From Minisyncoccota bacterium (GTDB lineage Bacteria; Patescibacteriota; Minisyncoccia; Phycocordibacterales; Phycocordibacteraceae), in contig DASPLI010000001.1 of the NCBI GenBank assembly GCA_035627655.1, positions 24,265 to 88,264 on the forward strand: DNA of 64,000 nucleotides, written 5' to 3'. The translations under genes and the position numbers were made by a program. This document shows positions 30,900 through 51,900 of this stretch, piece after piece (the stretch's first letter is position 1; every line of letters starts with the position of its first letter). The notes under the pieces are model-generated. The model saw only the letters and a program-made list of their open reading frames with translations. It was not told the DNA's origin and searched no databases.

Positions 30900-31688
30900 C
30901 TAGAGAGGACAGGCATGAGTGGTTTGCACGAGCGTCCACACGGCAAGCGCCGTTGTATGCGGGTTTGAAATGGTCGCTCCGGGCGAAGCGCCCCAGCCGC
31001 CATCTTCGTTTTGATTGCGCATGATTGTATCAATCCAGTCATGCGTTACGTAACTGCCATGACCTCCCCAGAGTAAGAAAGCGGCTCGTTCGACGGCTAA
31101 GTCGCTAAAAGTAAACGACTCAGCTCGTGCGGCTTCGTAGAGAGATCGTGCTGCTTCTGTTCGAAGTTCGCGCGCTTTCCAATGTTTCTCTCCGGCCAGG
31201 CACTGAAGTCCTTCAAGATAACTAAGTCCTAAGTAGCGGTGCGTAAGGTCGTATCCCGTACCCTGATCTTCAGCCAACAATTCCTGCTCAACACCGACTG
31301 GAAGAGAGCGTATTTTACATGCGAGCGCAGACAGCAGCCAGCGGTCATATGCTTCCATCTTGCCTTCAAAGACGCGGAAGTTATTGCTGTCTGAAAATCC
31401 GAGGAAATAGGCTTGTTCAACAGGCGTCGGCGAAGATGACACAAACCGGTCAGTAAGTTCCTGACTGAATGCTTCCGATTTGCAATACCGCTCGTTGATA
31501 TCGGTGAGCACCCAGAGCACACCCGGATTTCCGTAGGTGCCAGAGTAGGAACGCAGCCACATCATGCCCTGCTGAGCTGAGGTTTTCATGCGATCAGTCT
31601 GATCTGAAAGAACTGCAAACCATCCAACGAACGCGACAACAATTACTAGCACCATTACAGAGCGAACAATGACCAATGAGTGCGCCAT
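30900..31688 (-). CDS. Membrane-anchored protein with prenyltransferase/terpene-cyclase-like alpha/alpha-toroid repeats.
   Basis: N-terminal TM helix (SVMVLVIVVAFVGWFAVL). NEDGGWGAS and related repeats are typical of the prenyltransferase/squalene-cyclase repeat superfamily. Confidence 0.4.
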   Translation of the reverse strand: MAHSLVIVRSVMVLVIVVAFVGWFAVLSDQTDRMKTSAQQGMMWLRSYSGTYGNPGVLWVLTDINERYCKSEAFSQELTDRFVSSSPTPVEQAYFLGFSDSNNFRVFEGKMEAYDRWLLSALACKIRSLPVGVEQELLAEDQGTGYDLTHRYLGLSYLEGLQCLAGEKHWKARELRTEAARSLYEAARAESFTFSDLAVERAAFLLWGGHGSYVTHDWIDTIMRNQNEDGGWGASPGATISNPHTTALAVWTLVQTTHACPL

Positions 31689-33871: not shown

Positions 33872-33954
33872 GCGCTGTAGCTGCTTCAGTATAACGTACG
33901 GGTAAGAAACGAGTGTGGAGAATGCTTGGTGGGCGCATATTATAATGCGGCGCA

Positions 33955-34956
33955 ATGGCTTCTACCCTCCCGCGATCGGTCCGTGACTGGATCGTTATTG
34001 CGCTTGCGGTCCTAGTGATCACCTTCACGACAGGACTCCTTATTCAACAGAAAAAGCCGCTGCTACTACTCAGTCTTGAAACTGCGCCAGTCAAAGAACT
34101 TGACGCGCACCGCCACCACATTGATGACGCGGTTGGCGACCACGGGCACGGCGTTATGGTCTATTCCGACGAAGTAATCACGACCGAAGACCTGTGGGTG
34201 CGCGGGGTGCAGGCGGACGTTATCAACGCGCCGCGTGTCGTTCTCCACCACCTCACGATATCTATTACCCCTCCTGTAGCACCCGATACGTCCGCACCTG
34301 CCGGAGAGCAGTTTCTGGGTGCGCGAAGAATACTCCGCTCAGGACAAGATGTGGCGGGTACTGTTCTCCTTCCAAAACCGTATGCGAGTTTTGTTCCGAA
34401 AGGTTCTCGCATTAGCATCAGTGCCATGCTCCACAACCCCCTCCCACCAAAAGGACCGGGCGGACAATACAGCAACGTCTTTCTGCGTGTTGGGTTTCTC
34501 GGACTCGATTTCCCTGCTAAGCAGGCGGTGCAAAGCTCGTCTGTCTCGCTTATGCTCGTAGATAAAGATAGCGCAACTGGCGATACGTTTACCGTACCGC
34601 CCCATATCACAGAATATGTGCGCGCAAGCTCAGACCCAAATGATATCGGCCGCTCGACCTTCCGCTTTCCAACCTCTGGGACTTTGGTTGGCCTTGGCGG
34701 TCATATTCACGCGTGGGAAGGCGGAGACCGCCTTGAGGTCGAACTCAATGGCAAACGTATCCACTCATTTATTCCTCGTCTTGAAGACGAAGGACCATGG
34801 GATTGGCACACTGACTATCAACCAATGCTGCTGAGAGTAGCTGCTGGAGATGTGCTCACCATTTCCGCTATTTATTCCAATCCTTCAGACAAAGCGGAGC
34901 GAGGAGCTATGGGTATTGTGCTTGCAAACTTTGCTCCTGATTCCGAATCTCGATAG
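33955..34956 (+). CDS. Hypothetical membrane-anchored protein of 333 aa.
   Basis: N-terminal TM helix (WIVIALAVLVITFTTGLLI). A His-rich segment (HRHHIDDAVGDHGHG). No recognised family. A TATAAT box lies 8 nt upstream of the ATG, so the mRNA may be leaderless. Confidence 0.45.
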   Translation: MASTLPRSVRDWIVIALAVLVITFTTGLLIQQKKPLLLLSLETAPVKELDAHRHHIDDAVGDHGHGVMVYSDEVITTEDLWVRGVQADVINAPRVVLHHLTISITPPVAPDTSAPAGEQFLGARRILRSGQDVAGTVLLPKPYASFVPKGSRISISAMLHNPLPPKGPGGQYSNVFLRVGFLGLDFPAKQAVQSSSVSLMLVDKDSATGDTFTVPPHITEYVRASSDPNDIGRSTFRFPTSGTLVGLGGHIHAWEGGDRLEVELNGKRIHSFIPRLEDEGPWDWHTDYQPMLLRVAAGDVLTISAIYSNPSDKAERGAMGIVLANFAPDSESR

Positions 34957-34959
34957 GAA

Positions 34960-35946
34960 TTATGGGGTTGTGGGTTCTGGCGCCGGTTCGGGAGTGGGTT
35001 CCGGCTCTGGCGTAGGCTCTGGCTCTGGGGACGGTTCTGGCGCTGGCTCAGGAACGGGTTCTGGGGTTGGTTCTGGAGTAGGTTCTGGCTCAGGAGCTGG
35101 ATCTGGCGCTGGCTCAGGGTTTGGTACGGGCTCGGGCTCCGGTTCAGGGGTTGGTTCTGGGTCTGGGGTGGGCTCTGGATCTGGATTCGGGTCTTCTGGC
35201 CGCCAATCGCATACTCGCGAATCTATTTGAAGTCCAGGAAGATCCGGGCATACGTCGACATACGGCCATGCAGGCGGCAGCGGAGGAGGTTCTGCTCCAG
35301 CAACCATCGCGTTTGTTTGCTCGATGATGGCATTCTCATCATAGGTCTCCATCGTGACCGGCACCTCAAGCGCAAGCGGATCGTACGGAATCTCGAGACC
35401 ATCGATCACGGGACGGTACGCTGGAAATTCCTCGCTGTCGGCATCAAGGAATTTACCAATAAGACCCGAGTACTCGGTTGCTATTACTTTCTTTGAAACA
35501 CCTTGCATCCGCTCAATATCTTGAGTGGCGGTGAGGCGCTCTTTCTCACGATCACGTATTTGAGCGAGTTCTTGCTCTACATACAGCCCTAGATCCCTTC
35601 CCCGAAGAACCGCTTTGGATACGGTAAGCGTTCCGGTCTTCTCTACGTCTTGCCACACGTAATCAACGATATCTATCGTATAGACCTGGTAGGCAACGTA
35701 GTAGGATTCGTCGTCCTCTGTCACTGACGTGACTGCTACTGCAAACGGAAACGATTCCAAATTTACGTTGACGATATAGGAGTTGTCGACGGTTCGAACA
35801 AACTCAGCTTGCGAATAAACCGCCTGCTGGACTGCTGGATTGGTTGCTGCTGCCGCAGAGCTTGTGCCAAGCAGAATGAGACTGATCACAATAGGAACTG
35901 TGTTGTTGTATTTGACGAAGTTCTTTATGTTCTCTTCTCGTTCCAT
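34960..35946 (-). CDS. Secreted protein with a C-terminal (PEPxPx)n low-complexity tail, encoded immediately downstream of the giant gene.
   Basis: Signal peptide ([16 protein letters not shown]). About 200 aa of globular domain. Then a [79 protein letters not shown] tail. Confidence 0.55.
34975..35215. repeat. Hexanucleotide-periodic coding repeat (GGN TCN / CCN GAN) that encodes the PEP tail.
   Basis: ggttctggc / ggctctggg units repeat. On the plus strand they read as the shadow ORF 34850..35230, [13 protein letters not shown]... Confidence 0.6.
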
Positions 35947-35964
35947 AAGCGAAAGTATAGCTGA

Positions 35965-38900
35965 TTAGAAGTTTGCCGTCTGGGCACCAAAGATCTTCAG
36001 GGTCGACGTCGCCTGCGTTGCCACAAAGCTCCAGATATCGCACTTATTCGCGGTGGTCGTCTGCGTCGGAGCCGTACCGCCCGGCCAGAGAATCTGTGTG
36101 CTCCAGGAGATAGCACCCGCGGTTGCGCCCGGGTTACAGACGGTCAACACGAGCTTCTGGCCTTGGATATAGCCCGAGAAGCTGATCGTCGTTGCAGAGG
36201 TGCCAAGACGCACCAACTGCTGGTTACCGTTACGCCAGTCGATGGTCATTGATGTTGAGGTCGCCAGCGTGTTTTCTGCCGCGACAATTGCGCTTCCAGA
36301 CGCAACCGAAAGGCCCGCCCACGGCGTTGACGTTCCAACGCCAATGGCAGTATCCGCAATGATGTTACCGACGCCCGCAGGAGTGCCGGAACAACCCCCA
36401 GAACAGACCCAGAGGTTTTCATTCCCGAGAATGACGTCATTACCTGAAGGATCTAGGTTGAAGTCGCCATTCGTGTCGGTTAGGAACTGTGTGTACCGGG
36501 TTCCGTCGTATGCGATCGCCACTTGAGCAGTTGAGACAGCGTCCGTAAGTGAGAGTTTCCGAGATGGTGTTGATGTGCTGAGGCCAAGACCGACGTTTGT
36601 AAGTGACATGTACTCCGTACCACCAGACGCAGAGGTGCCGCCAATGCGCCATCGGTACTGTCCACCAGACCAATTAGTGAGTGATCCGCTTTCAATACCA
36701 ACGCCGTATGAGTTAGAGAAGAGGTAGATCTTATCTGCAACCTCATCGGCAAAGTCGAGCTGGATGCCAGCGCCAAGGGTAAGATCACCGCCAGATGCGA
36801 CTGAGAGCGTTGCACCTGAAGCTCCAATTTGGAGCGTACCGTCCATACGAACAATCCCGCCACCTGTATAAATACCGCTCGTAAAGGCGCCTGTTGGATT
36901 GAGGCGTAGCCAGCTGTCGTCGTACTGGATAACTGTCTTTGCATCGCCGTAATAATAGGTACCACTTGCATAGATATCACTTGAGGCCTGGATGGTTCCT
37001 GTTGTTGTGTTGAGCATACCAACACCCAGACCACCCGTAAGGTAACCGCTACCACCAACCGAGAGCAAAGTTGCAGGGCTGGTAGTACCGATACCGACGC
37101 TTCCAGACGTGTTTATGGTAAGGAATGGGTTGCTGCCAATCGTTGTTCCGTCTCCGATCTGGAAGAGGTCGTCGTCATCGCCATCATTTTCTGTAACTAG
37201 ACCAAGCCAGTAGTCCGTATCTGCACGGGCTCCAAGAATGTCCGCGAGAATGATGCCAAAGTCACCTCCAAGTGAATTGGCTATTTCGAGACTGCCGTCA
37301 GTGATTTGCACTTTTGCTTCTGGAGTTGTGGTACCAATGCCAATGTTTCCGCTCGTCGCCATAAAGAGGCTTGATGTCGCTGTCAGCGTTGTGCCGTTTG
37401 CGGCATAGTACGGGAATTGACCGGTCGTACCCGAGCCGACCGTACCCGAGCCACTACCTCCCCCTACGCACGTGCCGCCAATTGCGAAACAGCCCGCCGC
37501 CAAGTTGATACCGCCCGTGCTGTAGAACGTTGTCGTGGCAGTAGTGAAGTTCGCGATACCATTGAGAGAAAGCAGGGACCCTGGAGTGGTGGTTCCTATA
37601 CCAAGATAGCCGTTTGGATCAAGCACCATCCGGGCAGCCCACGTTGCTCCCGAAGCAATGCCAAAGCGAATACCGCCGCCGTTCCCCAGTCCGTTTGTGT
37701 TTGGGTTAAAGCCCGATACGATATCCAACGAGTCATTTGACGAGCTGTATGCGATCCACGGACCGTGATTGGTGGTGGAGGTGTACTGCTCAAAGACAAG
37801 TCGGTTCTGGCCCTCAATCATCACATAACCATTCACGTCGAGTTTCGTGCTTGGGGTCGTGGTACCAATACCGACGTTTCCTCCCGTAGTAGCAAGGTAG
37901 GTACTTTCAGTGGTTGTCAGCTGTGTCGTTGAAGCGTTTCCGGTAACGGTGAGGAGTGAGCCATCAAAGGTAAGATTTGCTTCCGCGCTAAGAGCACTCG
38001 TTCCGTTACCAGTAAGAATCCGGTTATCGGTAAAGGAGGCTGCTCCTGTACCCCCGCCTGCAACGGTAAGTGTTCCAGAGAGCGACGGCGTAAACGTGAG
38101 TGTGTCACCAGAACCGGCAATAGTAATTGCGGTCGTGAGGCCGTTGAACGAGCCGGTCGAAGTCGCGAAGGTTACGGTCGGTCCGTCAGCAGTCTGCCCC
38201 GTCGGGCCGATTGCCGTGACAGCGTTCGTCAACAACCCAAGCGATGAGGTTGCAATGTCCGCCCATGCTGAGCCGTTCCAATACAAGAGATCGCCGTAAT
38301 TTTCCGTCATTGCCGCAACATCTGATAGATCCTCTATCGAGTTGTTTGTGAGGTCGTCGTCAGCGAGCGCGCCATCATTATTCGTAAAGACATTAGTGAC
38401 ATCCGTTAGCAGTGCCTCCAGTTCGCTCTCAGTATCAGTTTCTGCCTCAAGCAAGAACGTCGAAGAAGCGGTCCAGGTCGGCACACCATTGAGGAGCGCG
38501 AGTATATTCCCTGCCGTGCCAGCAGAGGTTGTCGCAAGCGCGCTAGAGCCATTTCCATATAGGAGAGCGCCTGACTGCACCGCTGCCCATCCGGTACCGC
38601 CGTTCCCTACCGGCAAGATGCCGGTAACTTCGCTTGCCAGATCTACTGCGATTCCGAGAGTTGTGGTGAGAGTTGAACCGGAGAGCGCGAGTCCAGTACC
38701 GACTAGATCGGTAAAGTAGTCGTCGCCGATCGAGAAATTCATGATCGACGCATTCGGGAGGGTCGAGGTCGCCGCCATCGAGGTGGCTGTGAAGTATTCG
38801 GCGACAGCCTGCCCTACTACCGAAAGCGGTGCGTAGGGACTTGTGGTGCCGATGCCGACGTTACCCGAAAAGTAGCCGAGGCCGCTCGCGTAAAGCTGGA

Positions 38901-41900
38901 TGTTCGCGCTCCCTTGCGTCGTGTTGCCAAGCCAGAGATCGTCGCCTGCGCCGGAAGTGAAAATGTCTTGGTTCGCACGAATGTCGCCGCCAGTGAGGTT
39001 TGACGAGACGGTGAGATTAGTTGCATTTACCGTTCCCGTGAACGTGGGTCCTGCCGAGAATACGAGAGAGCCTGTGCCGGTTTCGTCTGTTACCGCACTC
39101 GCGAGGTTTGCGGACGAGGGCGTTTCAAGGAATGCCGCGACGCCAGTCCCAAGACCCGAGACGCCGGTCGAGATCGGAAGGCCAGTAGCATCTGCGAGGT
39201 TGAAGGCGGGGGTAGCGTCGCTCCCGCCAAGAGAGAGCGTCACACCGCCATAAGAAATGGTCGAATTGGTCAAACCGGCGTTATCCAGCGTACCCGACAA
39301 GGACGGGGCAAAAGTCAGCGTATCTCCGGAACCAGTGATCGTAAGCCCGGTCGTGAGGCCGTTGAAAGAACCAGTTGAGGTTGCGAACGTCACTGTCGGA
39401 CCGTCCGCTGTCTGCCCAGCCGGGCCGATTGCCGTGATCGCACTCGTCACGATACCGAGTGACGAGGTCGCGATATCTGTCCAAGCACTACCATTCCAAT
39501 AGAGAAGGTCGCCGAAGTTCTTCGTCATTGTCGCGACGTCAGACAGGTCTTCTAGCGAGTTGTTGGTTAGGTCATCATCAGCAAGTGTGCCGTCGTTATT
39601 AGTGAAAACGTTGGTTACGTCTGCAAGCAGCGCTTCGAGTTCGGATTCGGAGTCGGCTTCACTCTCAAGCAGGAAAGTGGACGAAGCGGTCCACGTCGGT
39701 ACGCCATTGAGGAGTGCGAGTATATTCCCTGCAGTTCCCGCCGTCGTCGTTGCAAGCGCGCCGGTACCATTGCCGTAGAGAAGCGTGCCCGACTGTATAG
39801 ATCCCCATCCAGTACCTCCGTTCGATACGGAGAGCACTCCAGACACTTCTGACGCCAAATCAATGGTAGTTCCAAGTGTGGTCGTAAGCGTAGAACCCGA
39901 GAGTGCGAGTCCAGTTCCGACAAAGTCAGTGATGAAATCGCCGCCGATTGAAAGCCGAGAGAGCGAGAGGTTTGGCAGTGTGGAGGTCGCCGTTGTTGAT
40001 GTTGCAGTATATATAGGAGCGTTTATACCGCCATAGACGGTCGTGAGTCCGTTGATTATGGCGTTGCCAGCAACCGAGAGAAGCGCGCCAGGGCTGGTAG
40101 TACCGATACCGACAACGTTTGAGAAGTATGAGCGACCAAATACTTCTAGAATGCTGTTGGACGTCGTGGTTGCGCTATTGCCAACGATCACGACATTGGT
40201 TGTATCTGTCGGGTAAATCGCGAGACTGTCGGATGTCGTTGCCCAAGCCCCTGCACCACCTCCACCACCAGAGGTAAGGTCACTACCCCAGGCAGGCAGA
40301 CCACCAGAAACCTTCAGCACTTGTCCTGCGCTCCCGATTCCCAACTTTGCTAGGTTTCCGCCTGCATCTGCATACAGAATGTCTCCTTGCGTATAGCTAG
40401 TAAGACCGGTGCCTCCCTGACCTACACCCAGAGTCCCGCTCGTATCAGAAAGCGCGACGCCGAGCGTTGACGTTGCTCGCGACTCCCAGGTACTTCCTGT
40501 CCAAGAAAGAATGTTCCCGTATGCAGTGCCTCCAATATGCGGAATGGTTGAGGACCCACTAATATACGAACCGACCGCTGAGTTGAAATCAGAAATCGTA
40601 GAGGCAAGCTGCGTTCCGGTGTGATTTGCGCGCGCAAGATAGTAGCTTCCCTCTTGCCCATCAAGCGTTCCGGTCCAGTCTCCTGTCGCGTTCAATGTAA
40701 GAATGCCGCCGCTATTTTGGAGACCGGCGCCGGTAAGGTCGGTAAAGGTTTCCGAGTTGATACCGAGCGCCGTTGTCGTAGCGTTCGTCGTCGAGGCATT
40801 TGTCGCAAAGAGCGAGCTGAATATATTGTGCGCGCCCCAGGTATTAGCCGTGGTGGTGCCAAACGCAAGAGAGATGGTATTGCTTGAGCGAATGAGTGGA
40901 TACGTAAACGATAAGACGTTTTCGTAATCCGTTCCTGCAACAGCAGTAGACACTACCCCAGACGCCGCTTTCAAGATGCCGGTAAAGGTTCCTACGGATA
41001 GGTTGCCGAAGAAACCTGATGTTGACGACGCGTATGAGGAGGAGAAATTAGTGGTAGACGCATTGGTTACAGTAAGACGATCATTGGTTGCGTCATATGT
41101 AAACCCAGAATCTCCTGCAAAAAGACCGCCGTTATTGAACTGCACTTGTGTGTTCGCGCCGCCTGGAGAACCAGAGCCAGCACCAATACCAAGTGATGAG
41201 GTTGCAAGCAGTGTGTATCCGCCAAGACCATCTCCAACAAGCAGCTCTCCGTACGCAGGAGCGGTTGTAACGCCAGTACCGCCGTTTGCGATACCGAGCG
41301 TTCCGCCGAGAGTAAACGTTCCCGTAGATGTCACTGGACCCCCCGTAAACGTAAACCCAGTGGTGCCACCAGAAATATCTACCGAGGTGACAGATCCTGA
41401 GCCACCACCACCGGAAGAGTCGTTGCTCTCGTCGATGCTGTCATATATATCGTTTGAGACCTGTCGGCGCAGCTGAGCGAGTCGCAGCTCAAGATAGTCA
41501 AACGATACTCCCGTGAAGGTGAGGTAGTTGTTTACGTTTGTAATTGCAGGCGCGGATGAAGTCACTGCAACAGGTGCTGGAGATGAGACAGTGGTTGAGT
41601 TATTTGGAGCAGGCAGAACAGACGGCGGAGTAGAAGGAGGAAGAACAGTAATCTGTGTAGGAGTAAACAGTGAAGCAATAGCGGTGCCTGCTCCTTCAAA
41701 GAGGCCATTTATATATAGGTATGTATTCAGTGCGAGCTGCTCGCCCATTTGCTGCAGAGATCCGGCGAAGCCAGAGGAGTTTGCAGCTGCTAGTGCCACT
41801 TCTAGATTTGGAGAATCTTCAGCAATCTCACTCTCAAGAATGGTGAGCGACTCGGGAACGTCTCGATTGGTTGTCGTTGATTGGTTTTCGGAAGTACTTG

Positions 41901-43074
41901 CCCCTTGTACCTTAGAACCGCTGGCAATTACGGACGCGACAAGGTTGGGCGGTAAGATGCCCGAGAACGTGAGTTCTTGCTCCATAACCTTAGCCCCTGT
42001 GCCAGAGGCAATGGAGTAAGACGAGTTCGAAACCGGAGGCTTATCCAAAGCTTCTACAACAACCACTTCCTCTGGAGCTGCGAGGAGCGTTGCAACACTT
42101 GCAAGATTCTCATTGCCAATCGCAAGACGCGCAGAGAATGCATCAGCAAAACGTGTGCGTGTAGTTTCGTATGTAAGCGCAGCGTTACCAACTAGCGCAA
42201 GCGCTTTGTCTTCAACAACATCACCAATCAGTACGCCGAGTGCAATTTGCCGTTCCGACTCAGCCTCAACCAAACTTGATGTTCTGTTCACCCAAGCCTC
42301 GACACCTTTATTATATGAATATGCAATTTGTGTTGGTGCGCTGTTAGTAATCTGCATTGCGCCGTCACCAAGGCCGTACAAAGCCGCAAGCGAATACCCC
42401 ATTACCTCATTAGTAAACGAGCTCCAGACAGCAAATAGATTTCCTGCCGGAGTGCTGTTTGCTAAATCGCGTGTAGCAACCCCAACGACAAGCACTGCGT
42501 CTCCGGTTGTATACACCTGCTCAAGATATTCCTGTAGGCCAGCATCAAGGACATGGAGGTATTCTTCCCCAATAAGTCGATAGGTAGTATCAAGCGACGA
42601 TGCCAATACTCTTCCAGAATTGAGAGCAAGGGCACTCTGGTCAGCGCCGATTTCTCTAATATTTGCAACGATAAAATTCGAGGACGACTCAATGACTTTT
42701 GTTTGTCCGATGAGTAGTCCCCCCGTAACTATAAGAATTGCACTCAGAGCTGCAGTTGCCTGTGAAGGTGCGAAGTACGGTGAAGGAACACTTCGAGATT
42801 TCTTTGCACTAACTGTCGGCTTACTTACAACCTGTGCAGCTCGATATTCTTTTTCGCGAAGGCGCGAAAGTTCTTGAGCGTTTTTCTTCTTTTGTAGATC
42901 TTGGTTGGCGACAAATCTAAGAAGTGAGGCACGATTTATTAACCAAGTCCTTCCAACTCTTGTTCCGTTGATTGCACCGGTACGACAAAGACGTGCAAGG
43001 TAGTCTGAATGGTACCCAGAAAGCTCTGATGCTTCTTTGCTCGATATATATTTTTTATCAAGGAGAGGGTCCAT
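35965..43074 (-). CDS. Giant protein of 2369 aa. An N-terminal excisionase/HTH_17-like module and a single TM helix are followed by a huge repetitive Gly/Thr/Ser-rich beta-type ectodomain.
   Basis: The N-terminus KKYISSKEASELSGYHSDYLARLCRTGAINGTRVGRTWLINRASLLRFV follows the HTH_17 pattern (hydrophobic-x-x-x-E-A-A-E-L-x-G-x-S-x-x-x-hydrophobic-x-x-L-x-x-x-G-x-hyd-x-x-x-x-hyd-G-R-x-W-x-hyd). Residues ~105-125 form a TM helix (AALSAILIVTGGLLIGQT). The remaining >2200 aa are low in charged residues and rich in G, T, S, A and N. A G(N/S)(V/I)GIGTT(S/T)P motif recurs. A NGGTG motif and tandem duplicated blocks are present. Confidence 0.75.
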   Translation of the reverse strand: MDPLLDKKYISSKEASELSGYHSDYLARLCRTGAINGTRVGRTWLINRASLLRFVANQDLQKKKNAQELSRLREKEYRAAQVVSKPTVSAKKSRSVPSPYFAPSQATAALSAILIVTGGLLIGQTKVIESSSNFIVANIREIGADQSALALNSGRVLASSLDTTYRLIGEEYLHVLDAGLQEYLEQVYTTGDAVLVVGVATRDLANSTPAGNLFAVWSSFTNEVMGYSLAALYGLGDGAMQITNSAPTQIAYSYNKGVEAWVNRTSSLVEAESERQIALGVLIGDVVEDKALALVGNAALTYETTRTRFADAFSARLAIGNENLASVATLLAAPEEVVVVEALDKPPVSNSSYSIASGTGAKVMEQELTFSGILPPNLVASVIASGSKVQGASTSENQSTTTNRDVPESLTILESEIAEDSPNLEVALAAANSSGFAGSLQQMGEQLALNTYLYINGLFEGAGTAIASLFTPTQITVLPPSTPPSVLPAPNNSTTVSSPAPVAVTSSAPAITNVNNYLTFTGVSFDYLELRLAQLRRQVSNDIYDSIDESNDSSGGGGSGSVTSVDISGGTTGFTFTGGPVTSTGTFTLGGTLGIANGGTGVTTAPAYGELLVGDGLGGYTLLATSSLGIGAGSGSPGGANTQVQFNNGGLFAGDSGFTYDATNDRLTVTNASTTNFSSSYASSTSGFFGNLSVGTFTGILKAASGVVSTAVAGTDYENVLSFTYPLIRSSNTISLAFGTTTANTWGAHNIFSSLFATNASTTNATTTALGINSETFTDLTGAGLQNSGGILTLNATGDWTGTLDGQEGSYYLARANHTGTQLASTISDFNSAVGSYISGSSTIPHIGGTAYGNILSWTGSTWESRATSTLGVALSDTSGTLGVGQGGTGLTSYTQGDILYADAGGNLAKLGIGSAGQVLKVSGGLPAWGSDLTSGGGGGAGAWATTSDSLAIYPTDTTNVVIVGNSATTTSNSILEVFGRSYFSNVVGIGTTSPGALLSVAGNAIINGLTTVYGGINAPIYTATSTTATSTLPNLSLSRLSIGGDFITDFVGTGLALSGSTLTTTLGTTIDLASEVSGVLSVSNGGTGWGSIQSGTLLYGNGTGALATTTAGTAGNILALLNGVPTWTASSTFLLESEADSESELEALLADVTNVFTNNDGTLADDDLTNNSLEDLSDVATMTKNFGDLLYWNGSAWTDIATSSLGIVTSAITAIGPAGQTADGPTVTFATSTGSFNGLTTGLTITGSGDTLTFAPSLSGTLDNAGLTNSTISYGGVTLSLGGSDATPAFNLADATGLPISTGVSGLGTGVAAFLETPSSANLASAVTDETGTGSLVFSAGPTFTGTVNATNLTVSSNLTGGDIRANQDIFTSGAGDDLWLGNTTQGSANIQLYASGLGYFSGNVGIGTTSPYAPLSVVGQAVAEYFTATSMAATSTLPNASIMNFSIGDDYFTDLVGTGLALSGSTLTTTLGIAVDLASEVTGILPVGNGGTGWAAVQSGALLYGNGSSALATTSAGTAGNILALLNGVPTWTASSTFLLEAETDTESELEALLTDVTNVFTNNDGALADDDLTNNSIEDLSDVAAMTENYGDLLYWNGSAWADIATSSLGLLTNAVTAIGPTGQTADGPTVTFATSTGSFNGLTTAITIAGSGDTLTFTPSLSGTLTVAGGGTGAASFTDNRILTGNGTSALSAEANLTFDGSLLTVTGNASTTQLTTTESTYLATTGGNVGIGTTTPSTKLDVNGYVMIEGQNRLVFEQYTSTTNHGPWIAYSSSNDSLDIVSGFNPNTNGLGNGGGIRFGIASGATWAARMVLDPNGYLGIGTTTPGSLLSLNGIANFTTATTTFYSTGGINLAAGCFAIGGTCVGGGSGSGTVGSGTTGQFPYYAANGTTLTATSSLFMATSGNIGIGTTTPEAKVQITDGSLEIANSLGGDFGIILADILGARADTDYWLGLVTENDGDDDDLFQIGDGTTIGSNPFLTINTSGSVGIGTTSPATLLSVGGSGYLTGGLGVGMLNTTTGTIQASSDIYASGTYYYGDAKTVIQYDDSWLRLNPTGAFTSGIYTGGGIVRMDGTLQIGASGATLSVASGGDLTLGAGIQLDFADEVADKIYLFSNSYGVGIESGSLTNWSGGQYRWRIGGTSASGGTEYMSLTNVGLGLSTSTPSRKLSLTDAVSTAQVAIAYDGTRYTQFLTDTNGDFNLDPSGNDVILGNENLWVCSGGCSGTPAGVGNIIADTAIGVGTSTPWAGLSVASGSAIVAAENTLATSTSMTIDWRNGNQQLVRLGTSATTISFSGYIQGQKLVLTVCNPGATAGAISWSTQILWPGGTAPTQTTTANKCDIWSFVATQATSTLKIFGAQTANF
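38040..38766 (-). repeat. Intragenic tandem duplication, copy 2 (~245 aa, near-identical to copy 1).
   Basis: The protein block ATSTLPNASIMNFSIGDDYFTDLVGTGLALSGSTLTTTLG...GPTVTFATSTGSFNGLTT...TLTFTPSLSGTL repeats copy 1 at ~90% identity. The plus-strand shadow ORFs 37910..38299 and 39257..39502 share VSVSPEP..VRPL.EPVEVA.VTVGPSAVCP at an offset of 1218 nt. Coordinates are approximate. Confidence 0.55.
39258..39984 (-). repeat. Intragenic tandem duplication, copy 1.
   Basis: ATSTLPNLSLSRLSIGGDFITDFVGTGLALSGSTLTTTLG...GPTVTFATSTGSFNGLTT...TLTFAPSLSGTL, offset 1218 nt (406 aa) from copy 2. Coordinates are approximate. Confidence 0.55.
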
Positions 43075-43432
43075 GTCGGATAACCGAAGTAATTAGATTC
43101 TACAATCTAAAATCGTGATTCATATAAAAAATATTTGTGGATAGTGAATGAAATAAATTTAAAAGATTTACAACGTCTTGTATGAATCAAAGAATTAATT
43201 CTTGATGGGGTTATGCTTTTCGCAAGTTGCAAGAAAGTGCCTCTAGATTTGAAGTAAAAAGTTAGCGAATTAGTTGTTTAGATATGTTCTCTCTCGGTAA
43301 ACGAAAAAGCTAAAATATAAAACATATTTCATCTCGCCAAAAAGAGAGTACGTGATGCAAATGTCGAAGAAAAGCTATACCGAGGTTCAATGCTTGCGTT
43401 TTTGACCGTTGAACTCAGCACTGTATGCAAAA

Positions 43433-43467
43433 AAATCTCGTCCTGAAACGAGATTCTTTTTTATACG
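43433..43467. terminator. Bidirectional rho-independent terminator downstream of the 43493..44320 gene.
   Basis: aaaaaa-atctcgt-cctgaa-acgagat-tctttttt: a hairpin flanked by an A-run and a T-run. Confidence 0.5.
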
Positions 43468-43492
43468 AGACGAGAAACGCTTTATTTACTTA

Positions 43493-44320
43493 TTATTCTA
43501 TATGACTTACCCCACCAAAGAAGTTCAACAAGACGGCCGCACCACCTCCTTCGTTAGTAAAGCGGTCGGCAAGCCCAGAACCTATGACAGCAACACTAAC
43601 GAAGATAAGCATTGCACTCAGGAGCGCCGCTTTCATGACAAGGTTGCTCTCTTGTGGAGTCCTTCTCTGACCATAAGGAGAACGTGCAGCCGCCTGCGGG
43701 GCCGCTTGTACCTGTTTAGGCTGCATATCCTGAATAATGTGGAGTGGCACCGCCTTCTCTTCCTTAGCCGGTTCTGAATCGATAACCTGCTCAGTTTTAT
43801 CCTTCGCCACCTCCTCCTCTTTTACTTCTTCAACTCCATCTTCAAGAGGCAGCTCCTGTGCGTCAGCAGGTTTAGAAAACCAGCTCTCCCACTCTTTGTT
43901 TTCTTCTTCATGTTTCTCTCCCACAACATCTTCAGTTGTAGGTGATACAGAGACCTCTTCGACTTCTTCCGTTGTACTTTCTGTAACCTCCTCCAATACC
44001 TGCTCCTCCTCTCTTAGTTGAGGAAGCGGAGCAATTTCTTCAGGGGTGTAAATCGGTGCTTCCCATGTGGCTTCAATATTAGTTTTTTCGGTTATGTCTT
44101 CCTCTTTGGTTTCTACAATCTCGTCTTCACGAGCCCCCTCTTCGTCAAACCGATGCTTACGTAGGGACGGCTCGTGAACATACCAACTCCTTCCAATGAG
44201 ACGAGCTTCTACTCGCCCCTCTCGGCACAATTGGCCAATGTAGTCTTTAGCGTAGCCAGCAATTGCAGCAGCACGCTTTGACGAGATGTAAGTCTTTCCG
44301 TCGATTGTTATTTCGTCCAT
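43493..44320 (-). CDS. Paralog of the giant protein's N-terminal module. It has an HTH_17-like N-terminus, a long poly-acidic Glu-rich linker, a single C-proximal TM helix and a short tail.
   Basis: KTYISSKRAAAIAGYAKDYIGQLCREGRVEARLIGRSWYVHEPSL aligns with residues 8-55 of the giant protein (YISSK.A....GY..DY...LCR.G......GR.W......L). Residues ~60-200 are ~35% Glu/Asp. The TM helix is AALLSAMLIFVSVAVIGSGL. Confidence 0.6.
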   Translation of the reverse strand: MDEITIDGKTYISSKRAAAIAGYAKDYIGQLCREGRVEARLIGRSWYVHEPSLRKHRFDEEGAREDEIVETKEEDITEKTNIEATWEAPIYTPEEIAPLPQLREEEQVLEEVTESTTEEVEEVSVSPTTEDVVGEKHEEENKEWESWFSKPADAQELPLEDGVEEVKEEEVAKDKTEQVIDSEPAKEEKAVPLHIIQDMQPKQVQAAPQAAARSPYGQRRTPQESNLVMKAALLSAMLIFVSVAVIGSGLADRFTNEGGGAAVLLNFFGGVSHIE

Positions 44321-44409
44321 TGGCTAGAATTATAGCCGTTTTTAATCTCGGATAAAAGAGGTATGCACAGAATCTCTGGGTTCTGTGCATATACAAGGTT
44401 ATTTGGCTC

Positions 44410-45825
44410 TTATTTGGCTACCTCTTCGAGAATAAGCTCTTGAAGTAACGCAGGGTTCCCAGCACCCTTAGTGACCTTCATAGCCTGACCTACTAGGTAT
44501 TTGAGAGCTACCTCTTTCCCCTTTCGGTAATCCTCTACAACACCTGCCTGCTCTTGCAGCATTTCCTGCACGATAGGACGTAGAGACTCCCGATCACTGA
44601 CCTGGGCTAGACCTCGGGCTTCAACTACAGCCTCTGGCGTCCCCCCCTCTTGTGCAAGAACGAGAAGTGCATCTTTTGCTCCACGTGAGGAGAGTTTATT
44701 CTCGGCCAACATGCGTACGAGTCCTGCGAGTGCTTCGGGAGAGATTTTCTCGTACTCAGACGTGCCGCTCTTGGCGTAGTAGCCAGCGAGATCTGAAGTG
44801 ATGTAGTTTGCCGCAAGCTGAGCAAGACGTTCACTGTTCTCAAGCACACGAAGCACAGCATCGAAGAAGTTGCTGCGAACTATTGAACTACCGAGAAAAA
44901 GAGAATCTTCTCGTTTGATTCCGAGTGCCTCATACCGAGCACGGCGTTCCCACGGCAACTCCGGCAATGAGGCTCGCAGTTCTTCTGCTGAGAATTCGGG
45001 TATTTCTGACAGTTTCATTTTCGGTAGGTCAGGTTCCGGGAAATACCGATAATCTGCACTACCCTCTTTAAAGCGTTGGTGGAACGTTTCTTGTTTTGCC
45101 TCATTCCAGCCACGCGTCTCTTGCACTACCGCCCCACCAGAACGCAGGAGTTCCGCTTGGCGCTTAACCTCGTACTCGATCGCTCGTTCAACAGAACGGA
45201 AGGAGTTAAGATTCTTGACTTCAACTTTCGTTCCAAATGAGTCTGTATTAGAAACAGATATGTTTGCTTCAATGCGCATCTCTCCTTTTTCAAGATTTGC
45301 ATCAGATACGCCAAGAGTACGAAGGAGAAGCTGCAACTCACGCGCAAAGTCACCTGCAGTCTTTGCATCATGTATAACAGGCTCTGTAACAAGTTCCATG
45401 AGCGGTACACCTGCACGATTGAAATCAACGAGTGACTTACCGCCGTGGTGGGTTGATCGGGCAGTGTCTTCTTCCAAGTGCACGCGAGTAATCGCTACAT
45501 CATTGAGTAACCCGCCACTCACCAGCGGATGCTGATACTGACTAATCTGATATCCCTTTGGAATATCAGGATAGAAGTAGCTCTTACGATCAAATTCACT
45601 GTAGTCTGCAAGTGTACCGCCAAGCGCAGTTCCCACTCGCAGCACGTGCCGCACCGCTTCCTTATTGATTGTAGGAAGTGTTCCGGGGTGCGCCAAGCAG
45701 GTCGGGCAAATATGTACGTTTGGTTCTTTTTCGTCCGGATCATTCCGAGACTCGCAGAACATTTTGGCCTTCGTCTTGAGTTCCGCATGGATCTCAAGCC
45801 CTATGGTCGGGACGTACTCCTTCAT
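44410..45825 (-). CDS. gatB: Aspartyl/glutamyl-tRNA(Asn/Gln) amidotransferase subunit B.
   Basis: YVPTIGLEIHAELKTKAKMFC...NVHICPTCLAHPGTLPTINKEAV and the C-terminal GatB/YqeY domain. Confidence 0.9.
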   Translation of the reverse strand: MKEYVPTIGLEIHAELKTKAKMFCESRNDPDEKEPNVHICPTCLAHPGTLPTINKEAVRHVLRVGTALGGTLADYSEFDRKSYFYPDIPKGYQISQYQHPLVSGGLLNDVAITRVHLEEDTARSTHHGGKSLVDFNRAGVPLMELVTEPVIHDAKTAGDFARELQLLLRTLGVSDANLEKGEMRIEANISVSNTDSFGTKVEVKNLNSFRSVERAIEYEVKRQAELLRSGGAVVQETRGWNEAKQETFHQRFKEGSADYRYFPEPDLPKMKLSEIPEFSAEELRASLPELPWERRARYEALGIKREDSLFLGSSIVRSNFFDAVLRVLENSERLAQLAANYITSDLAGYYAKSGTSEYEKISPEALAGLVRMLAENKLSSRGAKDALLVLAQEGGTPEAVVEARGLAQVSDRESLRPIVQEMLQEQAGVVEDYRKGKEVALKYLVGQAMKVTKGAGNPALLQELILEEVAK

Positions 45826-45857: not shown

Positions 45858-46841
45858 CTAGGCCTTGGAAGCGTTGCGAAGCGCCTGACTCAGGCTGTCG
45901 GAGAAGCTCTTGAGGAGTTCAGGATCAGAAACAGATAGTGGCACAACCTCCTTCCCCGCCACCGTTGAAAGGGTCTCTAAGGCGCGTTTTTTCTCTTCTT
46001 CAGATAAAAGATCGGCCTTTGAAAGAACCACGATCTCCGGCTTTTCTGAGAGACCTTGTCCAAACGCGGCCAACTCTTCTCGTATCCCACGATAAGCTGC
46101 AGCAAGGTCTTCTTGTTCTGCCGAGACGAGATGTACAAGTAGTCCGGTGCGTTCTATGTGTCGCAAAAACTTCGAACCAAGCCCTCGTCCTGCCGAGGCA
46201 CCCTCGATAAGCCCAGGAATATCAGCAAGAAGGTATCCGTAGAAATCTCCCAGGTGCGGATCAAGGGTTGTAAAGGGGTAGGCACCAACTTTCGAGCGGG
46301 CACGCGTCAGCGCGTTCAAAAGGGACGATTTGCCGGCATTAGGATACCCAATGAGACCCGCGTCAGCGATCAGTTTTAGGACAATTTCGATATCCCCAAC
46401 CTCCCCCGGCTTTCCTGGTGTGGACTGGAATGGATTCTGATTTGTAGAGCTTTTAAAGTGGGCGTTTCCGTAACCACCAGGACCACCCTTAAAGATCACT
46501 ATCCGCTGACCTTCCTCCAGGACTTCGAAGGTTTCGCCGGTGGTGACAATGCGCGCAACCGTTCCTACGGGTACGCGAATGACGATAGGGGGCGCATCTT
46601 TACCGTGCTTGTTGTTTCCACCGCCCGGCTTACCATTCTCTGCGCGGAACTTTTTCTCGTATCGATATGTGGCAAGTGCAGCCAAGTCGCGAACCCCTTC
46701 AAGGACAATATCGCCACCACGCCCACCGTCACCACCACAGGGACCACCCTTTGCTGTTTCCTTTACCCGTAGCCAACGAATAACGCCAGGACCCCCATGT
46801 CCCGCCTGCGCATGCACCCGAAGCTCGTCGACAAATGCCAT
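45858..46841 (-). CDS. obg: GTPase Obg.
   Basis: MAFVDELRVHAQAGHGGPG...GGDGGRGGDIVL is the Obg fold. The GTPase motifs are GYPNAGKSSLL and DIPGLIEGA. Confidence 0.9.
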   Translation of the reverse strand: MAFVDELRVHAQAGHGGPGVIRWLRVKETAKGGPCGGDGGRGGDIVLEGVRDLAALATYRYEKKFRAENGKPGGGNNKHGKDAPPIVIRVPVGTVARIVTTGETFEVLEEGQRIVIFKGGPGGYGNAHFKSSTNQNPFQSTPGKPGEVGDIEIVLKLIADAGLIGYPNAGKSSLLNALTRARSKVGAYPFTTLDPHLGDFYGYLLADIPGLIEGASAGRGLGSKFLRHIERTGLLVHLVSAEQEDLAAAYRGIREELAAFGQGLSEKPEIVVLSKADLLSEEEKKRALETLSTVAGKEVVPLSVSDPELLKSFSDSLSQALRNASKA

Positions 46842-49527: not shown

Positions 49528-49614
49528 TTACTTGCGCTTTGCAGTCTTGCGGCGCTTCTTTGCTGCCTTCTTGGTGGTCTTCTTTGCAGCCTTGCGTGCC
49601 TTCTTCTTTGCCAT
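49528..49614 (-). CDS. Tiny lysine-rich basic protein of 28 aa. It is below the size cutoff of the ORF track.
   Basis: My own translation: ATG GCA AAG AAG AAG GCA CGC AAG GCT GCA AAG AAG ACC ACC AAG AAG GCA GCA AAG AAG CGC CGC AAG ACT GCA AAG CGC AAG TAA gives MAKKKARKAAKKTTKKAAKKRRKTAKRK. Calculated pI is very high. A perfect terminator follows. An AT-rich putative promoter region lies upstream. Confidence 0.4.
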   Translation of the reverse strand: MAKKKARKAAKKTTKKAAKKRRKTAKRK

Positions 49615-49751
49615 GGTGATTAGTACATTACAAGCTTGTATTCGACCCACTTACGCGCGTGAAATAAATTTTCTCGCGTGAAGTGTCCTACAACGTATTA
49701 TTGCGCGCAGAAAAATTTTTTGTGCGAGAAAAGCGCGAGCTGTGGATAACT

Positions 49752-51890: not shown

Positions 51891-51900
51891 AGTGTTGGCA

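Follow-up and report, generated by a model that had tools for sequence, protein, structure and literature searches.

What is a module that looks like a DNA-binding domain doing at the N-terminus of a surface protein of more than 2000 residues? The question is raised by two neighboring genes of a Minisyncoccota bacterium (assembly GCA_035627655.1, contig DASPLI010000001.1), located in a stretch of 64,000 nucleotides that was analyzed as a whole and is called the window here. Patescibacteria (CPR), which account for a large part of bacterial diversity, spend their lives attached to other cells and carry tiny genomes with few recognizable regulators; to our knowledge, the ways in which they detect and handle contact with a host are little understood. 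A first-pass annotation had described a giant protein and a small neighbor that share an excisionase-type N-terminal module, had likened their topology to that of ToxR and CadC, and had offered a targeting or anchoring module as the alternative. We favor, with about even confidence, a membrane-tethered DNA-binding head, fused to a surface fiber, in the role of an autoregulator and/or a nucleoid-envelope tether. The architecture, fold, family size, synteny, and promoter boxes are established here.

Two neighboring genes and their family

Both genes were found in the list of open reading frames on the minus strand, where the first-pass annotation had placed them, and their translations agreed with the peptides it quoted (Table 1). 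An identical copy of the giant protein was present on 4 contigs that had been assembled independently; one of these is 742 kb long. Concern that the true starts might lie downstream of the module was set aside because homologues of both proteins share the same M-D-P/M-D-E beginning and because the giant has no further in-frame methionine before residue 225, and the small protein none before residue 199. The proposed operon with the gene for the 328-aa protein is plausible since the two genes are on the same strand and 18 bp apart, and the giant and this gene are probably co-transcribed. A homologue of the 328-aa protein (42% identity) adjoins the small gene in another locus, L003. Between the small gene and the giant stands a terminator-like hairpin. 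An Rfam scan of the whole window returned a single tRNA, located elsewhere, and no known RNA in the 418-bp spacer.

Table 1. Positions of the genes, protein segments, and sequence elements within the window (aa, amino acids; TM, transmembrane; wHTH, winged helix-turn-helix)
Feature	Position	Strand	Basis or remark
Gene for 328-aa protein, N-terminal hydrophobic anchor or signal and (PEPxPx)n tail	34960..35946	-	18 bp after giant
Giant gene, 2369 aa: wHTH head, basic helix, predicted TM helix, 2241-aa ectodomain	35965..43074	-	ORF list and translation
Conserved C-terminal all-beta tip domain of about 125 aa, residues 2244-2369	35968..36345	-
Predicted extracellular region, residues 129-2369, fibrous, tail-fiber-like, six VGIGTTSPxxLSV motifs	35968..42690	-	Composition, motifs
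Internal duplication, copy 2, residues 1382-1673	38056..38931	-	Self-BLAST, DNA repeat
Internal duplication, copy 1, residues 964-1267	39274..40185	-	Self-BLAST, 66-85% identity to copy 2
Predicted single TM helix or signal anchor of giant, residues ~104-128	42691..42765	-	Kyte-Doolittle peak 1.75
Long basic helix after wing, giant residues 48-84	42823..42933	-	AF2 helix, high pLDDT
Excisionase/MerR-type winged-helix module of giant, N-terminal, residues 7-58	42901..43056	-
CGGTTATCCG pseudo-palindrome	43077..43086	-	2 nt before giant start codon
-10-like TAGAAT with TG two bases upstream (ttgTAGAAT)	43097..43102	-	Consensus-style inference only
TATCCACA box, DnaA-box-like	43136..43143	-	Starts 69 nt upstream of the A of giant ATG
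Terminator-like hairpin with T-run, 3' of small gene	43427..43462	-	Sequence AAAAAAGAATCTCGTTTCAGGACGAGATTTTTTTGC
Conserved TCTCGTCTCG block just 3' of small gene stop	43466..43475	-	13/15 related loci, 6-18 nt after stop
Small gene, 275 aa: wHTH, Glu-rich linker with conserved motifs, predicted TM helix, ~25-aa outside tail	43493..44320	-
Predicted TM helix of small protein, residues ~228-250	43571..43639	-	Kyte-Doolittle peak 2.39, RR...K before
wHTH module of small protein, residues 9-60	44141..44296	-	44% identity to giant module; HTH_17 15.4 bits

Topology was assigned by hydropathy and the positive-inside rule only. Hydropathy placed one TM helix after the module in each protein, as had been claimed; a weak second Kyte-Doolittle peak at residues 277-295 of the giant contains D, E, and K and is not a TM helix. 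In the AF2 model the TM segment of the giant was not helical (pLDDT ~50-55). Flanks rich in K/R precede both TM helices, and residues 1-105 of the giant hold 20 K/R versus 9 D/E, with few positive charges after the helix. Among 143 family proteins, K/R averaged 3.9 before the helix versus 1.4 after it. This charge distribution puts the N-terminus inside and suggests, from sequence, an N-in/C-out topology for both proteins, that is, the inside head, single TM helix, and outside C-terminus of the ToxR/CadC arrangement.

The two genes belong to a very large family of Patescibacteria proteins with a predicted bitopic architecture. Each of the two proteins starts with a single winged-helix module of the excisionase/MerR type, where relatives often carry two, and continues with a charged linker, a single TM helix, and an outside part, which varies greatly in size across the family. 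A profile of the module matched 8,701 protein clusters at E<=1e-3 and 3,984 at E<=1e-10. The exhaustive HMM search that gave this family was needed because a word-indexed protein search, which returned 1 and then 12 matches, was nearly blind to it. All 46 genomic loci recovered were from Patescibacteria. A TM helix followed the module or modules in 143 of 150 proteins and in almost all ORFs of the loci. Of the module-bearing proteins examined, about 93% had a TM helix after one or two modules. All 150 best matches had tandem double modules, as in TraN. The outside parts ranged from about 20 residues to giant tail-fiber-like filaments. The first-pass proposal of a module that recurs in other genomes, in several paralogs and ahead of a TM helix, was therefore borne out: the module occurs in thousands of proteins, frequently with more than one at a locus, and one TM helix nearly always comes next. 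One architecture, with a winged helix inside, one TM helix, and an outside part that can be a mere stub or a tail-fiber-like filament of 2000+ residues, is repeated across thousands of clusters.

In public annotation these proteins appear only as 'helix-turn-helix domain-containing protein' or as 'hypothetical'. We found no description of the family in the literature searched, which covered HTH_17/excisionase domains in Patescibacteria, HTH-bearing giant CPR surface proteins, membrane-tethered MerR-type regulators, and TTATCCACA in CPR; the proteins resemble bitopic HTH membrane proteins. The family offers a starting point for the annotation of a large part of CPR 'dark matter'. A phage or mobile-element origin of the module was rejected after searches of IMG/VR (no module relatives), of phage and plasmid collections (three marginal tblastn matches only), and of PHROGs (no match).

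The gene order secA-obg-gatB-small protein-giant, a conserved place in the core genome, is widely kept, and the gatB-small-giant part persists at GatB identities down to about 50%. The small protein had been called a paralog of the giant; the shared module stands, but the small protein is not merely a local paralogue, since its orthologues form a positionally conserved group at the same place after gatB in many loci. Its linker had been read as poly-Glu and proved instead to be rich in Glu (28% E; 143 aa with a net charge of -37), with the conserved short motifs WxxPxY, MQxAWxEWF, and VP[VL][RH]xI. Only about 25 of its residues are predicted to lie outside.

The outside part of the giant

The outside part of the giant would be a tail-fiber-like filament of about 2240 residues with a conserved beta-rich tip. 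Its composition (residues 129-2369: G 14, T 14, S 11, A 10, and N 6%; K+R 2.3%) agrees with the original description of more than 2200 residues rich in G, T, S, A, and N and poor in charge. In contrast, the megadalton scale attributed to it was an overestimate; the mass is about 0.23 MDa per chain. The DNA repeat that underlies the internal duplication, D2, has a spacing of 1218 nt. The tip domain recurs in at least 18 relatives (33-63% identity), each time exactly at the C-terminus, and was modeled entirely as strands (AF2 pLDDT about 75-85). We gave it no fold assignment because the model is of moderate confidence only and the matches to phage spikes are weak (TM <=0.38).

Ectodomain relatives numbered 979, several of which are called 'tail fiber domain-containing protein' or carry PF13884 and some of which are named 'hemagglutinin'. 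Hundreds of tail-fiber-like or Peptidase_S74-associated Patescibacteria proteins have GIGTTSP-type repeats and a conserved C-terminal domain in common with the giant. The giant differs from them in its HTH head, which was present on only 3 of 120 listed relatives of the C-terminal part, and in having no match to PF13884 in a Pfam scan; PHROGs gave no match to it either. With the PF13884-bearing proteins it shares only the repeat region and another C-terminal domain. Presumably the filament is an adhesin or host-contact fiber of an episymbiotic cell. The giant was rejected as the target of a diversity-generating retroelement (DGR), with no TR/VR-type repeat in positions 31000-45000. No bAvd gene follows the giant in the window; one does follow its relative P0171 in locus L048.

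The winged-helix module and its relatives

The modules of the giant and the small protein were identical at 20 of 45 residues (44%; pairwise BLASTP, E=3e-11), and a profile built from the two found no third copy in a six-frame translation of the window. The excisionase-type assignment received borderline profile scores: residues 9-58 of the giant matched HTH_17 (PF12728) at 26.6 bits (E=7e-6; cutoff 27) and the TIGR01764 excisionase model at 25.1 bits (cutoff 28.8), and the small protein scored 15.4 bits on HTH_17 (E=0.023). Clear homologues exceeded the HTH_17 cutoff, with 52 (P0007), 58 (P0045), 46 (P0131), 42 (P0140), and 34 bits (P0004). The fold was predicted with high confidence (AF2 pLDDT >96 over residues 10-80). 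Residues 9-58 were arranged as beta-alpha-alpha-beta-beta(wing)-alpha, which contains the beta1-alpha1-turn-alpha2-beta2-beta3 (wing) order of the MerR-excisionase fold, and the best structural matches were Xis, BldC, AlpA-type excisionase, the MerR family, RacA, and TraN. Foldseek matched the module to Xis and TraN with a probability of ~1.0, at 28-30% identity. The basic helix after the wing carries a motif, ...LAxxRExEYR..., common to the giant-type relatives P0001, P0007, P0045, and P0131.

Among 367 unique modules, the mean net charge was +2.7 and at least 7 positions were conserved at 97-99%. The core of the recognition helix, GYxxDYxGQLxR, was almost invariant across hundreds of paralogues with differing ectodomains. 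When PDB sequences were searched with the head by phmmer, only TraN matched, and not significantly (E=0.5-0.9). In this alignment (E=0.5, not significant), the family-invariant D24 of the giant corresponds to N24 of TraN, R28 to Q28, and wing residues G41-R42 to G100-K101; in TraN, N24, Q28, and G100-K101 matter for DNA binding, as determined by mutagenesis (PMC10877727). Family members have either Q or R at the position four residues after the invariant Asp, which is R28 in the giant.

Several known systems come close but differ. ToxR, CadC, and TcpP likewise have an N-terminal cytoplasmic winged helix, one TM helix, and an outside C-terminal domain and need no phosphorelay; however, their heads are of the OmpR/PhoB type (Trans_reg_C), for which neither a match nor homology was detected here, and their outside parts are small globular sensors rather than a 2240-aa fiber or a 25-aa stub. 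In neither window protein was a periplasmic domain for sensing a ligand or stress found; a repetitive filament (giant) or a tail of ~25 aa (small protein) takes its place. TraN of pIP501 (PDB 4p0y/4p0z/6g1t) is a soluble, cytosolic conjugation-operon repressor of Firmicutes with two modules and without a TM helix or ectodomain, whereas each window protein carries a single module and a predicted TM helix. The excisionases (Pukovnik Xis, Tn916 Xis, AlpA/TorI) and BldC are free-standing proteins of 50-80 aa from mobile elements or developmental regulators. RacA of Bacillus subtilis, a chromosome anchor that links DNA to the cell envelope, also starts with a MerR-like wHTH that leads into a long helix, but it contacts the membrane indirectly through DivIVA, lacks a TM helix and ectodomain, and has no sequence homology to the family. 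RodZ, too, combines an HTH at its cytoplasmic N-terminus with a basic stretch next to the membrane, a single TM helix, and a C-terminal part outside, although its HTH is of the XRE type (HTH_25) and is accompanied by DUF4115, neither of which was detected here (Pfam scan, E<=0.1).

Promoter boxes and what the head may bind

The family genes have their own upstream boxes. TTATCC[AC]CA, which in the giant promoter lies about 68-69 nt upstream, was found upstream of 28 of 70 family genes versus 2 of 246 others (p=1e-18), and of 17 of 42 versus 2 of 206 when only distant loci were counted (p=4e-13); control heptamers of shuffled order showed no enrichment. The palindrome CGGWTAWCCG was upstream of 16 of 71 family genes and 0 of 246 others (p=1e-11). 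In related loci, the TATCCACA box kept a fixed distance in 14/15, TTCGG[AT]TATCCGAC stood ahead of the ATG in 12/15, and a TAnAAT element was present at the place matching the -10-like sequence. The candidate targets of the head would be these TATCC boxes that mark family promoters, TTATCC[AC]CA together with CGGWTAWCCG at the start of the giant.

The cytoplasmic head most likely binds DNA, as suggested by the positive charge of the module, the conserved polar or basic residues at TraN-equivalent positions, and the family-specific promoter boxes; the box evidence leans towards DNA binding over an anchoring or targeting module. It counts against a DNA-binding head that the giant narrowly misses the curated cutoffs of both HTH_17 and TIGR01764 and that the TraN similarity falls short of significance. 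The near-invariance of GYxxDYxGQLxR across paralogues with different ectodomains is unusual for sensor-regulators with distinct regulons, and the ectodomain resembles an adhesin or fiber, not a ligand sensor. In addition, Q versus R at the position equivalent to TraN Q28 showed no correlation with the presence of the TTATCCACA box. The residue thus does not predict the box and gives no support to a simple read-out code. If the head binds DNA, the proteins would act as membrane-tethered autoregulators and/or nucleoid-envelope tethers, a widespread one-protein link of surface structures to the chromosome in minimal cells.

Alternatively, and in our judgment somewhat unlikely, the winged-helix head could be a protein-docking module that ties the membrane anchors of many surface proteins to one conserved cytoplasmic partner (cytoskeletal, divisome, chaperone, or secretion) and so positions or organizes the surface fibers. 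A putative recognition surface that stays nearly invariant in 367 modules on varied ectodomains is what one partner would lead us to expect, the short linear motifs in the acidic linker of the small protein are typical of scaffolds, and the genes keep a conserved position beside secA/obg/gatB. There are also precedents, in that the HTH of RodZ binds MreB and the MerR-like CbpM binds the J-domain of CbpA. However, most structural neighbors of the module bind DNA, the module is net positive, the positions that match the DNA-contact residues of TraN hold conserved polar or basic residues, the family genes have specific promoter boxes including a palindrome, and no candidate partner was identified. 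If the head does bind protein, the family would be a conserved cytoplasmic docking system for CPR surface fibers.

Another scenario, which we consider unlikely, is that the head binds DNA non-specifically or at scattered sites as a RacA-like nucleoid-membrane tether, with DnaA or another regulator reading the TATCC boxes and thereby timing expression of the family with replication. The TTATCCACA box, which lies within a long AT-rich spacer, equals the textbook DnaA-box consensus, so its reader may be DnaA or a different factor. It stands ahead of a dnaB-like gene (L033) as well. In the window and in L026 it is also found before a tiny basic ORF, rich in Lys/Ala, that lies upstream of secA, and it recurs at the corresponding position in L024 and L040. 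The lack of correlation between recognition-helix residue type and box fits this scenario as well. In contrast, the palindromic CGGWTAWCCG is not a DnaA-box arrangement yet is equally family-specific, and the strongly conserved Asp/Tyr/Gln/Arg recognition helix suggests a specific target. Nor is the window a replication origin, since the cumulative GC skew makes no turn and gene orientation does not switch across it.

It is very improbable that the module has degenerated into a relic devoid of function, or that its role is solely topogenic, as a fast-folding plug that holds the N-terminus in the cytoplasm during export of a long ectodomain: it does always lie N-terminal to the signal-anchor helix, and the HTH_17 score of the giant is borderline, but its conserved positions exceed the needs of a plug, it is retained in proteins with only 20-50 residues outside, and its tandem duplication is common.

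An extension of the preferred reading, that of a membrane-tethered DNA-binding head, would have a host-contact fiber wired through one TM helix to a sequence-specific head at family promoters. Attachment, tension, or loss of the fiber would then change promoter occupancy, for example by clustering, by pulling of the locus to the membrane, or by Notch-like intramembrane cleavage that frees the head, and the whole set of surface proteins could be retuned without a kinase or second messenger. We regard this surface-to-genome coupling as quite doubtful.

The N-terminal module and its orientation

The giant protein (2369 aa) and the small protein (275 aa) encoded next to it were 44% identical over 45 N-terminal residues (pairwise comparison, E=3e-11), and a profile search of the window returned no third copy of this module. 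Against Pfam HTH_17 the giant scored 26.6 bits (cutoff 27) and the small protein 15.4 bits; the giant reached 25.1 bits against TIGR01764 'excisionase', and clear homologues scored 34-58 bits against HTH_17. An AlphaFold2 model of giant residues 1-134, from a 15-sequence alignment, had pLDDT >96 for residues 10-80, with b1 at 9-11, a1 at 12-19, a2 at 23-32, wing strands b2 at 37-40 and b3 at 43-47, and a long helix at 48-84. As modelled, the module is an excisionase/MerR-type winged helix; fold and homologue scores match the HTH_17/excisionase superfamily, and the scores of the window proteins themselves are borderline. The first-pass annotation had described an HTH-like module common to both proteins, and that observation and its structural interpretation were confirmed; the sequences it quoted agree with our translations. 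The true start might have lain downstream of the module, a possibility excluded because homologues share the M-D-P or M-D-E opening and no further in-frame Met occurs until just ahead of, or beyond, the transmembrane (TM) helix.

In the giant a single hydrophobic stretch is convincing (residues 104-128), and a weak second peak at 277-295 includes D, E and K; in the small protein one stretch stands out, at ~228-250. Up to residue 105 the giant counts 20 K/R and 9 D/E, with few positive charges past the helix. Among 143 relatives, K/R averaged 3.9 before and 1.4 after the TM helix. Because of this charge bias and the lack of an N-terminal signal peptide, a type-II, N-in/C-out orientation is predicted, so that the N-terminus, which might have come out on the outside, is placed inside by hydropathy and charge. 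The TM segment was left unstructured in the AlphaFold2 model.

Family distribution and gene order

Counted as 50%-identity clusters, the matches to a 58-position profile of the module in an exhaustive HMM search numbered 8,701 at E<=1e-3; of these, 3,984 reached E<=1e-10 and 328 reached E<=1e-30. All of the best 150 matches carried two tandem modules. One TM helix followed ~106 residues past the modules in 143 of these, with ~48 residues beyond it; the other 7 were short (104-250 aa) and fragment-like. Scanning GTDB with one genome for each species gave 46 loci, in which almost all module-bearing ORFs likewise had a TM helix past the module(s), so the order of module and TM helix described in the first-pass annotation recurs in other genomes. 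At least 28 of these ORFs exceeded 700 aa, most running past the end of the fetched DNA at >2000 aa. Source annotation read only 'helix-turn-helix domain-containing protein' or 'hypothetical'. All 46 loci were Patescibacteria, including Paceibacterota and Taylor-, Kaiser-, Giovannoni-, Campbell- and Nealsonbacteria, with two labelled Gammaproteobacteria. These two (L027 and L037) are MAGs named 'uncultured Gammaproteobacteria' that carry family HTH-TM genes; L027 has the Patescibacteria-type order obg-gatB-HTH-TM, and L037 is a 2.5-kb contig with the family gene only. Misbinning or mislabelling probably explains these names.

Features of the locus and its surroundings in the window
Feature	Positions	Strand	Remark
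Wzy_C/TPR and GT47 genes	49776-52995	-	upstream of secA
TTATCCACA box	49741-49749	-	perfect; precedes 28-aa ORF
28-aa Lys/Ala-rich ORF	49528-49614	-	between Wzy_C/TPR gene and secA; unannotated
secA	46933-49455	-	ORF list and Pfam
obg	45858-46841	-	ORF list and Pfam
gatB	44410-45825	-	ORF list and Pfam
Small 275-aa ORF	43493-44320	-	next after gatB
TCTCGTCTCG	43466-43475	-	past stop codon of small gene
Spacer			418 bp, between small and giant ORFs
TATCC[AC]CA box	43136-43143	-	spacer block, DnaA-box-like
CGGWTAWCCG (pseudo)palindrome	43077-43086	-	directly before giant ATG
Giant 2369-aa ORF	35965-43074	-	after the spacer
Giant duplication copies	39274-40185 and 38056-38931	-	74% DNA identity, spacing 1218 nt
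328-aa ORF	34960-35946	-	18 bp past giant
(PEPxPx)n tail of 328-aa protein	34972-35211	-	tandem array
333-aa ORF	33955-34956	+	in ENA gene call
727/755-aa protein	31688-33955	-	adjoins 333-aa ORF

The identical giant protein was found on four contigs in a database search, which excludes an assembly accident. The window lies on a 742-kb contig in an ENA metagenome assembly, and its gene content, together with all related loci, assigns the organism to Patescibacteria/CPR. The order secA-obg-gatB-small HTH-TM protein-long AT-rich spacer-large HTH-TM protein was repeated in 14 related loci (L002-L015; GatB identity 62-87%), and a same-strand module gene lay downstream of gatB in ~35 of the 46 loci, at GatB identities as low as ~50%. 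In more remote lineages gatB is accompanied by a two-module protein of ~310-400 aa, the type that also prevails among the best HMM matches. This conserved slot argues that the small gene is the core, positionally conserved gene and the giant its variable second member. The small protein had been taken for a neighbouring paralog; its module is indeed homologous, and the protein is not merely local, having orthologues at the gatB slot. Terminator-like hairpins lie 3' of gatB and 3' of the small gene, from which the small gene looks like a separate transcription unit and the giant and 328-aa genes like an operon; the operon proposed earlier for this pair is plausible, given also the short gap between them. 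In L003 a homologue of the 328-aa protein adjoins the small gene, which suggests that all three genes are linked.

The coding sequence of the (PEPxPx)n tail is an imperfect 12/18-nt tandem array with 11 overlapping copies, a kind of array prone to length variation. The 333-aa ORF, which has no family match, stands on the opposite strand amid minus-strand genes. The adjoining 727/755-aa protein has weak Gly_rich_2 and DNRLRE-domain matches and is probably a further surface protein. Two genes upstream of secA encode a TPR-repeat protein of the O-antigen ligase-like Wzy_C type (704 aa) and an exostosin-like glycosyltransferase of the mainly eukaryotic GT47 family.

The outside parts

Residues 129-2369 of the giant are 56% G+T+S+A+N and only 2.3% K+R, in keeping with the huge, charge-poor ectodomain first described; the chain is ~0.23 MDa, not megadalton-scale. 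The ectodomain contains six VGIGTTSPxxLSV motifs and a ~300-residue internal duplication (964-1267 and 1382-1673), whose 66-85% protein identity indicates recent expansion of the fibre. The giant ends in a conserved ~125-residue all-beta domain, and at least 18 other proteins end exactly with it too. The C-terminal third has 979 relatives; 'tail fiber domain-containing protein', 'putative hemagglutinin' and 'platelet-binding glycoprotein' are names given to several of these, and PF13884 occurs in many. The giant itself had no PF13884 or PHROG match, and its tip domain gave weak fold matches to phage spikes. From composition and relatives only, we infer that the fibre may serve as an adhesin or in host contact.

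Only ~25 residues of the small protein are predicted to lie outside. The linker ahead of its TM helix, noted earlier as ~140 aa of poly-Glu, has 143 residues and is Glu-rich (28% E, net charge -37) without being poly-Glu; orthologues keep the motifs WxxPxY, MQxAWxEWF and VP[VL][RH]xI. Many two-module relatives of ~330-400 aa (P0005, P0008-P0012) end in a conserved ~70-aa outside domain, with the motif …SFSDxVxVxPDxxGxxGVI[TK]PVFK…[FY][IMLT]YV[MI]VPV and the JGI label 'uncharacterized protein affecting Mg2+/Co2+ transport' (ApaG-like). Another relative, P0171 (1111 aa), joins an HTH head to the same tip domain as the giant and is followed by a bAvd gene (DGR accessory protein) and a 395-aa gene without a Pfam family, in the stretch L048 7726-12665. 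Because of this bAvd gene, diversity-generating retroelements may target some family members; beside the giant of the window no TR/VR repeat turned up.

Upstream boxes and the role of the head

The spacer ahead of the giant gene measured 333-726 bp in related loci, 5-22 GC points under the locus average, and kept three blocks amid otherwise saturated divergence. At 14 of 15 loci TATCC[AC]CA begins 67-68 nt ahead of the ATG (the longer TTATCC[AC]CA at about 67-69 nt), a TAnAAT -10-like element lies ~28 nt ahead of it, and TTCGG[AT]TATCCGAC, which holds the (pseudo)palindrome CGGWTAWCCG, abuts it. We counted boxes upstream of genes in all loci and the window, against other genes of >=100 aa (Fisher). 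TTATCC[AC]CA stood 25-140 nt ahead of 28/70 module genes and 2/246 others (p=1e-18), or 17/42 and 2/206 without 14 closely related loci (p=4e-13); the palindrome preceded 16/71 and 0/246 (p=1e-11), and TATCCGA 18/71 and 2/246. Two control heptamers were not enriched upstream of module genes. Further box sites preceded module genes whose starts were shifted, the tiny basic Lys/Ala-rich ORF near secA, a small gene of MerR-like type and one resembling dnaB. The upstream elements have a TATCC core in common, and both main boxes recur in the equivalent stretch of L002-L047.

Across 367 unique modules the consensus was [FLI][DE]GKxYISSKRA[SA]E[IL][ST]GYxxDY[IV]GQL[AC]RxGK[IV]..VGxxW[YF]V..SL..[HY]K, with Ala, Tyr, Asp, Tyr, Leu, Arg and Trp 97-99% conserved and a mean net charge of +2.7. 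Aligned to TraN, the two-module DNA-binding repressor of pIP501, the family-invariant Asp falls on N24, the Gln/Arg four residues on at Q28, and the wing G-R on G100-K101. Mutagenesis showed that TraN N24, Q28, G100 and K101 matter for DNA binding and repression (PMC10877727).

In the architecture shown here, an Xis/MerR-type winged helix, predicted to be cytoplasmic, leads through a basic helix and one TM helix to a surface fibre or stub. We propose that the head binds DNA, because almost all of its structural neighbours are DNA binders, the TraN-equivalent contact residues are conserved, the module is basic, the tandem modules resemble the two-module design of TraN, and the family promoters carry specific boxes, one palindromic over the translation start. 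An operator overlapping the translation start is the classical autorepressor position. A membrane-tethered DNA-binding head, acting as autoregulator and/or nucleoid tether, is in our judgment about evenly balanced between right and wrong. The recognition helix is near-invariant across paralogues, which fits one shared DNA target and with it collective feedback across the family; it fits equally well one shared protein partner, as for a protein-docking head like that of RodZ or CbpM, a reading we consider rather unlikely. RodZ combines an XRE HTH with a DUF4115 domain, neither of which is present in the window proteins. Within the DNA-binding option, it is more doubtful still that the head is a non-specific, RacA-like tether and that DnaA reads the family promoters; TTATCCACA is also the classical DnaA-box consensus. 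An inert or topogenic plug, a head with no binding role, is very improbable.

For a tethered DNA-binding head, ToxR/CadC offer the most similar topology, but membership there calls for an OmpR-type domain plus a sensor domain, and the window proteins showed neither. The head is most like those of TraN, Xis and RacA, without membership in any; TraN and RacA are soluble, and their sequence similarity to the window proteins is not significant. This architecture was not found in the full-text literature searched, which is not proof of its absence. In our assessment this is a bitopic HTH membrane protein whose head type is unprecedented and whose ectodomain is giant and fibrous, and it belongs to a very large family that is specific to CPR and has cis-elements of its own.

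The 28-aa Lys/Ala-rich ORF (MAKKKARKAAKKTTKKAAKKRRKTAKRK) near secA has a longer basic counterpart (69 aa) behind the same box in L026, and L024 and L040 have the box at the equivalent spot; perhaps this ORF contributes a histone-like or nucleoid peptide to the same regulon. TCTCGTCTCG lies 6-18 nt past the stop codon of the small gene in 13/15 loci (L002-L015 and the window), and its reverse complement CGAGACGAGATA occupies the -35 position of that gene's TATACT promoter in many relatives. A 10-12-nt inverted repeat thus flanks the small gene in many relatives, the upstream copy being degenerate in the window (TCCGAGAT); an operator pair, a hairpin and an inversion site are candidates for its role.
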